NCBI GenBank assembly: GCA_035726825.1
Contig: JALNTX010000007.1
Location: forward strand, 142,883 to 166,882
DNA from: Enterobacteriaceae bacterium G50
GTDB taxonomy: Bacteria > Pseudomonadota > Gammaproteobacteria > Enterobacterales > Enterobacteriaceae
Length of the DNA: 24,000 nucleotides
Direction: 5' to 3'
A program made the position numbers and the translations under genes. Under the pieces are notes generated by a model, which saw nothing but the letters and a program-made list of their open reading frames with translations, searched no databases and had not been told where the DNA came from. Below, piece after piece: positions 3,260 through 6,153 of this stretch. The first letter of the stretch is position 1; the number at the start of each line of letters is the position of its first letter.

Positions 3260-3599
3260 ACTCGACCCGCCATAATCCCTGTTAGCTAACCACGCGTGCC
3301 ATAATGCGCGCCGAACACGCGTTCAGCGACGATTCCCCTCCGGGATAAGAAGGAAAGAAGAGAGAAAGCCAGACGGTGTACAGGCGTCGGGATGACGCTC
3401 ACCGTAAAGGAGAGTGCTGGATGAAGGTGTTGCGAAATCGGGTAGTAATGTTGTCATCATCAGCGTTCCTGGCCGTAAATGAAACACGCGTACTCATTGA
3501 TACTGTCAATGTGATAGTAACACCTGGTTTTTGTATGTCTATTGTGTAAATGAAATGAGTTTAACCTCAATAAATTATAAACAGACACAACTATTAAAG

Positions 3600-3628
3600 T
3601 TGTTAACTATTTTGATAATGGCTATTCT
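3600..3628 (+). promoter_or_regulatory. Candidate sigma70 promoter for the M-box/mgtE transcript
   Basis: TTGTTA (3600-3605), 17-nt spacer, TATTCT (3623-3628). This would place the transcription start about 10 nt before the riboswitch P1 helix. Pattern match only. Confidence 0.3.
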
Positions 3629-3644
3629 GCCGACTCAATTTAAC

Positions 3645-3819
3645 GATCTCGTTATGGCGAGGCTCCTGTACAAAAATAAGTTATCGCCCTGTTGGTATCG
3701 AGAGAGACCGCTCAGGGAAATACAGGCATCCATCGAATCAAGGTGTTGCCAAGATAACTTCTGCCAAAATGCTTTTGGTCAGATACGTTGTACAGTGCTA
3801 AATCCAGGACGTAGGGATC
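3645..3819 (+). promoter_or_regulatory. M-box (ykoK leader) Mg2+-sensing riboswitch aptamer
   Basis: Blocks match my recollection of the B. subtilis mgtE M-box. CGTTATGGCGAGGCTCCTGTA matches CGUUAGGUGAGGCUCCUGUA. CATCGAATCAAGGTG matches CAUCGACAUAAGGUG. GTACAGTGCTAAATCC..ACGTAGG matches AUACAGUGCUAAAGCUCUACGAUUG. GATC/GATC closes P1. It lies directly upstream of an MgtE-family gene. Confidence 0.8.
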
Positions 3820-3876
3820 TGCTTTGCTAATCCTGTCTTGTTCGCCCCTATGAGAACTTTTCTATAGGGAAATTTT

Positions 3877-4890
3877 ATGTCCTCCATTCAATATGATGCT
3901 ATCCACAATGGCTTAACGGCTTTCCAGGGTGATGCGATCGCACAATATATGCGTACTGATTTTATGACGTTACCCGACGATCTTTGCGTGGGCGAAGCAC
4001 GCGACCGCTTTATTTCTCAACTCTCTCTTCAGGATATACCTGGACAACTTTTTGTTGTCGCCGGTAAAACGCTACGCGGCGTACTCTCAATAAAAAAGCT
4101 CCTTCAGGAAAAAGATTTAAAACTTCCGATTATCCATCTAATGGACAATTGCTTGCTCCGTGTGAAGCCTGATGCAGAGCGTGCTGAAGTTGTGGCTACT
4201 CTTGCACAGCGCGAGCTGGATGTTATTCCCGTTGTCGATAAAGGCGAGCTTGTAGGCTGCCTGACGATGAAAGAGATTGTGCATTTGCAGGAAGACGACG
4301 TTACCGAGGATGCTCAATTACAGGGAGCCACGCTTCCTTTAGAAAAACCATATCTTGATATGACGCCATGGGCGTTATGGAAAAAACGTTCTGTCTGGCT
4401 GCTATTACTATTTGTCGCTGAAGCCTATACCAGCAGTGTGCTTCAACATTTTGAGGAGTCGCTGGAGTCTGCTATCGCACTGGCGTTTTTCATACCTTTA
4501 TTGATAGGTACTGGAGGAAACAGTGGTACCCAAATTACCTCAACGCTTGTACGCGCGATGGCCCTTGGTGAGGTGCGTTTACGTGATATGGGGCAGGTTA
4601 TTCGTAAAGAGGTGACAACCTCATTCATGATTGCGCTGACATTGGGTCTTGCGGGCTGTTTCCGAGCCTGGATGATGGGGATTGGCGTCGAAATCACCAT
4701 GATCGTTAGCCTAACGTTAGTTTGCATAACGCTCTGGAGCGCAATTGTGTCCTCAGTCATTCCAATGGTGCTTAAGCGGATTGGCATCGATCCCGCAGTT
4801 GTATCTGCGCCCTTTATTGCAACGCTGATTGATGGCACAGGTCTTATTATCTACTTTAAAATCGCCCAGTATTTTCTTGGGTTGAATTAA
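3877..4890 (+). CDS. mgtE: MgtE-family Mg2+ transporter, short form: CBS pair plus MgtE transmembrane domain, without the ~130-aa MgtE N-domain
   Basis: 337-aa ORF. The CBS-like region includes VIPVVDKGELVGCLTMKEIV. The TM domain has MgtE hallmarks FIPLLIGTGGNSGTQ and DPAVVSAPFIATLIDGTGLIIYF. SD AGGGA lies 7 nt upstream. GC is visibly lower than in the flanking genes. Confidence 0.85.
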   Translation: MSSIQYDAIHNGLTAFQGDAIAQYMRTDFMTLPDDLCVGEARDRFISQLSLQDIPGQLFVVAGKTLRGVLSIKKLLQEKDLKLPIIHLMDNCLLRVKPDAERAEVVATLAQRELDVIPVVDKGELVGCLTMKEIVHLQEDDVTEDAQLQGATLPLEKPYLDMTPWALWKKRSVWLLLLFVAEAYTSSVLQHFEESLESAIALAFFIPLLIGTGGNSGTQITSTLVRAMALGEVRLRDMGQVIRKEVTTSFMIALTLGLAGCFRAWMMGIGVEITMIVSLTLVCITLWSAIVSSVIPMVLKRIGIDPAVVSAPFIATLIDGTGLIIYFKIAQYFLGLN

Positions 4891-4897
4891 TCATTTT

Positions 4898-4920
4898 CCG
4901 GCAGCATGGCTGCCGGCTTT
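4898..4920 (+). terminator. Weak intrinsic terminator candidate after mgtE
   Basis: CCGGCAGC-atg-GCTGCCGG hairpin followed only by CTTT. Confidence 0.35.
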
Positions 4921-4947
4921 GCGAGAACGAACAGGTGATAAGAACAC

Positions 4948-6153
4948 CTATTTGCCTGTAGCGCTCTCCCCCAGCGCCTGTGCGCAGGCCCAGGCGCTCG
5001 ACCATGCCCACTGGAAGTTATATCCGCCCAGCCAGCCGGTGACATCCATCACTTCGCCAATGAAATAGAGCCCCGGCACTTTACGCGCTTCCATGGTTCG
5101 GGAAGAGAGTTCGTTGGTATCCACGCCGCCCAGCGTTACTTCTGCTGTGCGATACCCTTCCGTGCCGTTAGGCTGCACGCGCCATTCGGTTAAGATCTCC
5201 ACCAGCGTTTGCTGATCGCGCACGTTAAGCTGTTTCAGCGTGACATCCGGAATCTGCCCCAACTGCTGCAAACACTCCACCAGGCGTTTCGGCAGATGCA
5301 TCGCGAGGGTGTTTTTCAGGCTCTGATTCGGGTGTTCCGCGCGCTGCGCATCAAGGAATTCGACAAGGTCGATATCCGGCAACAGGTTAATGGTGACAAA
5401 CTCCCCTGGCTGCCAGTAGCTGGAAATCTGCAACACCGCCGGGCCAGAGAGGCCGCGATGGGTAAACAGCAGGCTTTCACGAAAAACGGTGCCGTCTTCA
5501 GCGCTAATCACTGAAGGTACTGAAACGCCGGAGATAGTCTGGGAAACATCCAGCATCGGTTTGTGCAGAGTAAAAGGTACCAGCCCGGCGCGGGTTGGCA
5601 GAACCTTCAGGCCAAACTGTTCAGCTATTTTGTAACCAAATGGCGAGGCGCCAAGACCCGGCATCGACAATCCGCCGCTGGCAATCACCAGTTTTTTCGT
5701 GGTGACCGTTTCACCGTTGAGTTGCAGGCAAAAGCCCGCTTCATCACGCTCAACGCTCAATACTTCGCTACGCAGGCGTGTCGTAACGTTACCTTTTGCA
5801 CACTCATCTACCAGCAGCTTCACGATTTGCTCGGCGGAATCATCGCAGAACAATTGCCCCAGCGTCTTCTCATGCCAGGCGATGCCGTGTTTTCCGACCA
5901 GGTCGATGAAGTCCCATTGGGTGTAGCGCGCCAGCGCAGATTTGCAAAAATGCGGGTTTTGGCTGAGATATGCCGCGGGCTCGACATAAAGATTAGTAAA
6001 GTTGCAGCGGCCGCCGCCGGACATCAAAATCTTGCGCCCCGGTTTCTTACCGTTATCCAGTAGCAGCACGCGCAGGCCCGCCTGCCCGGCCTGCGCGGCA
6101 CAAAACATTCCTGCGGCACCTGCCCCAATTACAATGGCATCAAACCTTTCCAC
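4948..6153 (-). CDS. yhiN: NAD(P)/FAD-dependent oxidoreductase, HI0933/BaiN-like
   Basis: 401 aa. The N-terminus MERFDAIVIGAGAAGMFCAAQAGQAG carries a GxGxxG dinucleotide fold. Matches remembered K-12 YhiN and sits divergent from pitA as in K-12. Confidence 0.85.
   Translation of the reverse strand: MERFDAIVIGAGAAGMFCAAQAGQAGLRVLLLDNGKKPGRKILMSGGGRCNFTNLYVEPAAYLSQNPHFCKSALARYTQWDFIDLVGKHGIAWHEKTLGQLFCDDSAEQIVKLLVDECAKGNVTTRLRSEVLSVERDEAGFCLQLNGETVTTKKLVIASGGLSMPGLGASPFGYKIAEQFGLKVLPTRAGLVPFTLHKPMLDVSQTISGVSVPSVISAEDGTVFRESLLFTHRGLSGPAVLQISSYWQPGEFVTINLLPDIDLVEFLDAQRAEHPNQSLKNTLAMHLPKRLVECLQQLGQIPDVTLKQLNVRDQQTLVEILTEWRVQPNGTEGYRTAEVTLGGVDTNELSSRTMEARKVPGLYFIGEVMDVTGWLGGYNFQWAWSSAWACAQALGESATGK

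Follow-up and report, generated by a model that had tools for sequence, protein, structure and literature searches.

The stretch of DNA analysed here, a window of 24,000 nucleotides from Enterobacteriaceae bacterium G50 (contig JALNTX010000007.1, positions 142,883–166,882), contains an M-box riboswitch aptamer of the ykoK type followed by mgtE, a gene for a magnesium channel of 337 residues. The host is a Pseudocitrobacter, and the best named relative of the channel is the protein of Pseudocitrobacter faecalis DSM 27453 (98%). As read from the leader and its predicted folds, the M-box appears to regulate mgtE as a translational OFF switch that hides the Shine-Dalgarno (SD) sequence, an assignment we hold with moderate confidence. 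The novelty lies in this expression platform and not in the pairing of an M-box with mgtE, and its value is modest.

A scan of the whole window with Rfam 15 gives a single match above the gathering score. The match is to RF00380 (M-box, ykoK leader) and has a score of 107.7 bits, against a gathering score of 44, and an E-value of 1.9e-23. It spans model positions 1–169 of 169 and is not truncated. In the cmscan alignment, the aptamer contains one 11-nucleotide loop insertion and five pairs flagged as non-canonical. By the covariance model, the element is a genuine M-box. A search of the whole 5.06-Mb assembly returns the same score and finds one M-box copy, that of the window. The aptamer ends at 3823 and the ATG of mgtE lies at 3877 on the same strand, leaving 53 nucleotides between them, the leader position of a Mg2+ transport gene. 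The original prediction had proposed an M-box at 3645–3819 directly before an MgtE-family gene. The RF00380 match bears this out with essentially the same boundaries, and the open reading frame that follows matches the MgtE family PF01769. The aptamer is 96.7–99.5% identical between species whose mgtE genes are 77.7–96.7% identical. For the ortholog in the same chromosomal slot of a relative (locus L141), the values are 96.7% for the aptamer and only 77.7% for mgtE at the nucleotide level. A response of the window element to Mg2+ is presumed.

In the proposed mechanism, high cytoplasmic Mg2+ would compact the aptamer, which would hold both strands of its P1 helix. The anti-SD segment at 3846–3856 would pair with 3860–3869 to form hairpin S, burying the SD sequence AGGGAA and leaving mgtE untranslated (OFF). 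Rho might also cut short the untranslated mRNA in this state. At low Mg2+, P1 would open and its 3' strand (3805–3816) would pair with 3831–3840 to form hairpin X. The freed 5' strand of P1 (3647–3660) would capture the anti-SD at 3842–3855 to form helix Z, releasing the SD and allowing the channel to be made (ON). Helix Z as the specific capturing helix is put forward tentatively.

The platform carries no sign of an intrinsic terminator. A scan of the window found no terminator-like site between 3824 and 3876, and the leaders, read by eye, show no T/U-tract behind the aptamer or behind hairpin S in any genus. The window element is not a terminator-type M-box of the Bacillus subtilis ykoK kind. 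For comparison, 98 leaders were gathered from Klebsiella, Citrobacter, Enterobacter, Serratia, Yersinia, Proteus, Providencia, and Chromobacterium. A total of 84 distinct leaders were folded individually with ViennaRNA, with and without constraints, and 43 distinct leaders were aligned to a covariance model built for the platform.

In the minimum-energy fold of all 84 leaders, three to six of the six SD bases are paired. In the alignment of 43 leaders, 98.4% of the cells of hairpin X (helix 1) and 90.4% of those of hairpin S (helix 2) are paired, compared with 42–60% for slid controls. Two-sided changes are found in five pairs, and the five measures computed for the two hairpins all lie above every shuffle, with 0 of 500 reaching the observed values. 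Hairpins X and S are conserved, and the platform has no intrinsic terminator. The two hairpins are mutually compatible and thus do not by themselves constitute a switch.

A candidate for the missing alternative is helix Z, which appears when the SD is forced open. In this helix, GGCGA (3656–3660) pairs with UCGCC (3842–3846) and UCUCGU (3647–3652) pairs with AUGAGA (3850–3855). In 70 of the 84 leaders, the most favorable fold with an open SD has both X and Z, a state that costs 3.3 kcal/mol on average. Ten or more Z pairs form in 70 of the 84 real leaders, as against 139 of 510 sequences in which the anti-SD zone was shuffled. In MAFFT alignments, the paired cells of helix Z amount to 94% in Klebsiella-type leaders (group A) and 88% in Serratia/Proteus-type leaders (group B), versus 30–66% for slid positions. 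Both strands of Z are nearly invariant, and covariation is therefore thin. A compensatory change, from AUCUCG/UGAGA to AUCUUG/UAAGA (C-G to U-A), is present in the Kluyvera/G020 clade only.

Constrained folding connects the SD to the state of P1. When the P1 strands are blocked, opening the SD-AUG region costs on average 2.2 kcal/mol more; the difference is positive in 77 of the 84 leaders, and for the window the cost goes from 4.1 to 7.8 kcal/mol. The effect stems from the 5' strand of P1 (+2.1), whereas blocks of equal size in the aptamer core have an effect of about zero. Minimum-energy folds of the 3' half leave the SD closed with or without the 3' strand of P1, and addition of the 5' strand frees it.

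Several points weigh against translational control through helix Z. The leader sequences are related, and the counts given above are not independent. Hairpins X and S were assessed on an alignment that had itself been fitted to the structure under test. The blocking of P1 is a stand-in for a Mg2+-locked aptamer, and ViennaRNA cannot model the Mg2+-dependent tertiary fold. The covariation in Z, the long-range pairing on which the proposed switch depends, amounts to one event in one clade, and Z in group B does not rise above shuffles. Fourteen of the 84 leaders lack X, Z, or both in the SD-open fold, and Z has fewer than six pairs in 12. Finally, simple minimum-energy folds form hairpin S in both constrained states.

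The consensus fold of group B, computed with MAFFT and RNAalifold, was poor, with loops misaligned, so it was replaced by constrained folding of each sequence and column counts. Other candidate structures were set aside. An anti-sequestor from the 3' strand of P1, pairing UAGGG (3812–3816) with CCCUA (3847–3851), is possible in group A leaders only and shows no covariation in group B. A hairpin Y, in which the pyrimidine strand pairs with UGAGA and encloses the C-run, would turn the gene ON when Mg2+ is high, and it is a weaker hairpin than S. Control by an intrinsic terminator was likewise set aside, as no terminator was found.

The persistence of hairpin S in both states of the simple folds would also suit regulation mainly by Rho-dependent premature termination, with S as a constitutive damper. 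The segment 3824–3849 would become a single-stranded Rho site when P1 is locked and be hidden in X at low Mg2+. The model draws on X, the best-supported alternative helix, and on 3831–3849, which is C/U-rich and unpaired only in the P1-formed state. There is also a precedent, as the pe20 M-box of Mycobacterium tuberculosis joins translational control with Rho-dependent termination (PMC12810186). Nevertheless, we regard Rho as unlikely to be the main agent in the window. The exposed stretch is only about 25 nucleotides, whereas typical rut sites are much longer. In addition, a pure Rho model would leave unexplained the complementarity of the anti-SD with the SD and of the P1 5' strand with the anti-SD, both conserved over the 84 leaders. 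The Rho and translational mechanisms are not mutually exclusive.

A decaying relic, with mgtE constitutive or silent, is very improbable: the aptamer scores below the Serratia- and Proteus-type leaders (135–152 bits) and has the five flagged pairs, but it still scores 2.4 times the gathering threshold across the entire model, is better conserved than mgtE, and precedes an intact reading frame with invariant pore residues, and true relics look different, with P1 insertions or loss of mgtE.

Such altered loci occur among the relatives. In Raoultella sp. BIGb0138 (L065) and Klebsiella sp. WOUb02 (L071), the 3' strand of P1 is split by a GC-rich, repeat-like insertion of about 200–290 nucleotides, located about 200–300 nucleotides upstream of mgtE, while the platform and mgtE are intact. 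These split M-boxes may be naturally disabled or rewired riboswitches. Locus L020 (genome G132) has an intact M-box and platform, followed by an mgtE frame that stops within about 40 codons of the ATG and then by unrelated sequence; it is probably a disrupted copy. In Serratia-type loci of Serratia and Yersinia nurmii (L021, L098–L108, and L112), a gene for an MgtS-like small membrane protein (PF22865; MGNM..AAYMSTKWDD) lies just 3' of the M-box-controlled mgtE. Loss or degradation of mgtE in genomes G019 and G079, and probably in G159, leaves the M-box immediately in front of the mgtS-like gene (L023/L053 of G019; L028/L054; L042). The Kluyvera-like genome G020 carries two tandem M-box-mgtE units about 1.4 kb apart (C1:1968140–1970799; L034, L041, and L048), both with the AUCUUG/UAAGA version of helix Z.

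The protein encoded downstream is an MgtE channel of the CBS-TM class, composed of a CBS pair and a transmembrane (TM) domain. A Pfam search matches MgtE (PF01769) at residues 206–328 with 112.4 bits and CBS at residues 88–137, and does not match MgtE_N (PF03448). The protein aligns with positions 122–448 of the 450-position profile TIGR00400 and scores 208.6, below the cut-off of 232.75, which places it outside the equivalog of canonical N-CBS-TM MgtE proteins. No in-frame start was found upstream of 3877, a space filled by the aptamer.

Residues 149–470 of the 473-residue chain of Thermus thermophilus MgtE can be aligned with the window protein and comprise the CBS pair, the plug helix, and the TM domain. 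The pore aspartate equivalent to T. thermophilus D432 is kept, with IDGTG of the window protein aligned to SDVTG of 2yvx, and this residue, D319, is invariant across 23 homologs. An AlphaFold model with a pLDDT of only 69 contains the plug helix and TM helices, and its best structural match is 2zy9 (E-value 2.7e-17, TMq 0.61). Its CBS pair superimposes on that of 2yvy with a root mean square deviation of 2.1 Å over 121 columns. With PF01769, the pore aspartate, and a five-helix pore domain, the protein belongs to the MgtE superfamily.

Relatives of the window protein are 336–358 residues long. Among the best matches listed, all have PF01769, most have PF00571, and none has PF03448. The CBS pair, the lack of the N domain, and a length conserved in relatives assign the protein to the CBS-TM class, an architecture already recognized for MgtE (bioRxiv 10.1101/2025.05.26.656215). 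The earlier description of a protein that keeps the CBS pair and TM domain and lacks the N domain agrees with both the Pfam and the structure comparisons. The protein had also been called truncated, a term that does not fit, as the 336–358-residue form is the conserved full length of a subfamily. The N domain has been portrayed as clamping the CBS dimer, and the T. thermophilus mutant lacking residues 1–129 is reported to have a higher open probability (as summarized in PMC3435302). Since the window channel has no such clamp, control at the RNA level may matter more for it and might compensate for weaker self-gating.

Judged from the sequence, a weak sigma-70 promoter probably initiates transcription near 3635. 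The candidate promoter falls under the 9-of-12 threshold of the scan. Leaders of Klebsiella and Raoultella have hexamers that match better, TTGTTA / AATAAT or TATAAT, at the homologous position. About 50–75 nucleotides upstream of the −10 element, leaders of Klebsiella, Raoultella, and Pluralibacter (L014, L059, L066, and L070) share a conserved palindrome, GGTTTATCAAC-N-GTTGATAAACC, which is not conserved in the window. We take this palindrome to resemble a pair of PhoP-box half-sites. The features of the unit are collected in Table 1.

Table 1. Features of the M-box/mgtE cassette, in window coordinates
Feature	Coordinates	Strand	Basis and remarks
Whole cassette: promoter, M-box, platform, mgtE, terminator-like hairpin	3548..4966	+	Insertion/deletion relative to congeners; GC 45.4%
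Candidate sigma-70 promoter	3600..3628	+	−35 TTGTTA 3600–3605, 17-nucleotide spacer, −10 TATTCT 3623–3628; predicted
M-box (ykoK-type) Mg2+ riboswitch aptamer	3641..3823	+	Full-model match to RF00380
P1 5' strand	3645..3662	+	3647–3652 and 3656–3660 would pair with 3850–3855 and 3842–3846 (helix Z) in the proposed low-Mg2+ state
P1 3' strand	3805..3819	+	3805–3816 may alternatively pair with 3831–3840 (hairpin X)
Hairpin X 3' arm, UCCU GUCUUG	3831..3840	+	Pyrimidine-rich; single-stranded when P1 is formed
Anti-SD segment, UCGCC CCUAUGAGAA	3842..3856	+	Predicted to pair with the SD (hairpin S, 3846–3856 with 3860–3869) or the P1 5' strand (helix Z)
Hairpin S 3' arm with Shine-Dalgarno AGGGAA (3866–3871)	3860..3871	+	Minimum-energy folds and helix conservation
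mgtE, 337-residue CBS-TM type magnesium channel without N domain	3877..4890	+	Pfam, NCBIfam, and structure comparisons
Putative weak terminator-like hairpin, CCGGCAGC-ATG-GCTGCCGG then CTTTG	4898..4921	+	Between convergent mgtE and yhiN; read from the sequence, not flagged by the scan

The M-box/mgtE unit is widespread in the family. Among 151 genomes of the GTDB family, about one per genus, RF00380 matches 24 of the sampled genera with 28 matches. A homolog of 336–358 residues (53–80% identity) begins 51–76 nucleotides after the aptamer in 23 of the 28. Outside the GTDB family, RF00380 is found among the sampled genomes in one genus only, belonging to one other family of the order. Protein and locus searches identify hosts in the Citrobacter freundii complex, Klebsiella, Raoultella, Pluralibacter, Enterobacter, Lelliottia, Kluyvera, and Hafnia, and one cluster of Klebsiella homologs has 1,167 members. 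Further hosts are Serratia, Yersinia, Proteus, Providencia, and Photorhabdus and, outside the order, Chromobacterium and one Pseudomonas. In Providencia, the homolog of locus L129 has 356 residues, and loci L129, L131, L135, and L136 each have an M-box leader.

Earlier work had covered part of this range. A comparative-genomics study (PMC3766115) lists M-box-regulated mgtE genes in K. pneumoniae MGH 78578, C. koseri, S. proteamaculans 568, and P. mirabilis HI4320, and states that mgtE under an M-box motif occurs in gamma-proteobacteria. A review names Vibrio and Chromobacterium for the M-box (PMC9276622). The window element is an ordinary member of a pairing already catalogued. An M-box had been expected to be atypical for the family; its presence in 24 of 151 genera and its listing in 2013 (PMC3766115) speak against this, although homologs of the cassette are absent from all 5,426 complete E. 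coli genomes searched, even by sensitive blastn. A search of a plasmid collection returned as its sole matches chromosomes mis-filed as plasmids.

The cassette is 1,419 bp long, and an alignment from yhiI to yhiN defines its bounds, with the flanks of congeners homologous up to 3547 and again from 4967. Its left neighbors are rbbA and yhiI on the minus strand, and its right neighbors are a gene for a yhiN-type flavoprotein, also on the minus strand, and pitA. These flanking genes are about 80% identical to their E. coli counterparts. The E. coli slot between yhiI and yhiN holds yhiY/yhiM, in agreement with the slot described in the original prediction. The low GC content noted there is also confirmed by computation, at 39–48% over 3300–4900 compared with 56–67% in rbbA/yhiI.

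Base composition is one reason to ask whether the cassette is a recent horizontal import from a lower-GC donor, with regulation not adapted to its Pseudocitrobacter host. The cassette GC of 45.4%, against 53.5% for the genome, lies at the 7th percentile of genome windows, and the GC content at third codon positions is 0.46 in mgtE versus 0.64–0.71 in neighboring genes. In most other hosts, the GC content of mgtE follows the host (59% in K. pneumoniae, 38% in Proteus, and 61–62% in Chromobacterium), but Pseudocitrobacter is an exception. The cassette is present in only one of four congeners, and the site is cleanly empty or filled with repeats in the other three. Congener G003 has 45 nucleotides there, and G004 (L139) and G001 (L138) have arrays of a REP/BIME-like repeat of about 90 nucleotides (GCCTGATGCGCTTCGCTTATCAGGCCTAC...). 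The protein tree also holds non-vertical placements: Pseudomonas and Chromobacterium fall within enterobacterial clades, and Hafnia falls within a clade of Enterobacteriaceae.

Against an import stands the locus of the relative mentioned above (L141), which is more distant and in which the unit occupies the identical slot between rbbA-yhiI and yhiN-pitA, with flanks 82–91% identical. In K. pneumoniae the unit is flanked by nikR and yhiN, so that it adjoins yhiN in Klebsiella also. In the maximum-likelihood tree, the window protein groups with P. faecalis, and the C. freundii complex is their sister (support 96/95). This position lies within a Klebsiella/Raoultella/Pluralibacter clade and roughly follows the species tree. 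Mobility genes and direct repeats are absent from the cassette junctions. Old residence with repeated loss and allelic replacement by homologous recombination fits the data equally well. Taken together, we consider a recent import possible but rather doubtful. The mgtE genes of the window (3877–4890) and of the relative (4001–5014), which belongs to a related genus, have GC contents of 47% and 55%, while their proteins are 90% identical; one lineage has undergone a large synonymous shift.

We read the unit as an old enterobacterial one, with frequent loss and some exchange among enterobacteria. The protein tree places the window protein in Enterobacteriaceae and gives no sign of a recent Firmicute donor. 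If transfer took place, donor and recipient were both enterobacteria; differential loss is just as possible. The original proposal of horizontal acquisition was put too strongly. Low GC, empty congener sites, and patchiness fit gene flux, while the same slot in other genera and a tree position within Enterobacteriaceae count against it.

The genome contains two further Mg2+ transporters. A second MgtE (C4, L146:1480–2916, minus strand) is canonical, with 478 residues and MgtE_N, CBS, and MgtE domains, and is 28% identical to the short one. No Rfam match, and no M-box, is found upstream of its gene. MgtA is encoded behind an mgtA leader (RF01056, 93.6 bits; C1:467633–470547, minus strand). The host thus carries members of both Mg2+-responsive leader RNA families together with two MgtE architectures, and in this genome the riboswitch accompanies only the channel without the N domain. 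This arrangement offers a natural comparison in one genome between a riboswitched N-less MgtE, a riboswitch-free canonical MgtE, and MgtA with its own leader. The three transporters should be useful for asking how RNA-level control and protein-level gating share the work.

The annotation itself is routine, as Rfam detects the element and the Enterobacteriales M-box/mgtE pairing has been listed since 2013. The platform differs from the textbook terminator, and the leaders of Klebsiella, Citrobacter, Enterobacter, Serratia, and Proteus look like a second translational design. No account of how the enterobacterial M-box works was found in the literature searched.

The closest described units are those of Sun et al. 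(2013; RegPrecise, PMC3766115). The window unit is orthologous to that of Klebsiella, with 76% nucleotide and 80–82% amino-acid identity and yhiN as a neighbor in both. The portion of that study covered here lists the regulon and does not give a mechanism, and Pseudocitrobacter is not among the hosts it lists. The mgtA leader (RF01056) of the same genome is likewise a Mg2+-responsive leader of a Mg2+ importer. However, the two RNAs belong to unrelated families, and the mgtA leader governs a P-type ATPase, whereas the window M-box would control MgtE.

On the protein side, the CBS-TM class of Zhao et al. (2025, bioRxiv 10.1101/2025.05.26.656215) has the same domains as the window protein, namely a CBS pair, a plug helix, and five TM helices, without an N domain. 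No electrophysiology of natural CBS-TM proteins was found in the literature searched. The T. thermophilus delta-N construct (1–129) also shares the domain content of the window protein, but it is engineered and is reported to have the higher open probability mentioned above.

The window leader shares with the B. subtilis ykoK (mgtE) M-box (Dann et al. 2007, cited through PMC9276622 and PMC12810186) the aptamer family RF00380 and the class of gene downstream. Both are expected to be OFF at high Mg2+, and in each the platform offers the 3' strand of P1 a second pairing partner. The ykoK element uses an intrinsic terminator and precedes a canonical N-CBS-TM MgtE, whereas the window has no terminator, a hairpin predicted to sequester the SD, and a channel without the N domain.

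The M-boxes of M. tuberculosis pe20 and rv1535 (D'Halluin et al., RNA 2026, PMC12810186), called the first translational M-box by their authors, have a translational platform of SD, anti-SD, and anti-anti-SD in place of an intrinsic terminator, of the kind predicted for the window. The two differ in their parts. The regulated frame is a small upstream open reading frame in M. tuberculosis and mgtE itself in the window. The role of anti-anti-SD is played in M. tuberculosis by an SD-like stretch in the 3' end of its aptamer and, as proposed here, by the 5' strand of P1 in the window. Rho-dependent termination was shown in M. tuberculosis, whereas the window mechanism is a computational prediction. 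We suggest, with some reserve, that enterobacterial M-boxes may use an undescribed translational "double strand-swap" platform. It would be a second, independently built type of translational M-box, the first to control a Mg2+ channel directly, and its partner would specifically be a channel without the N-domain clamp.

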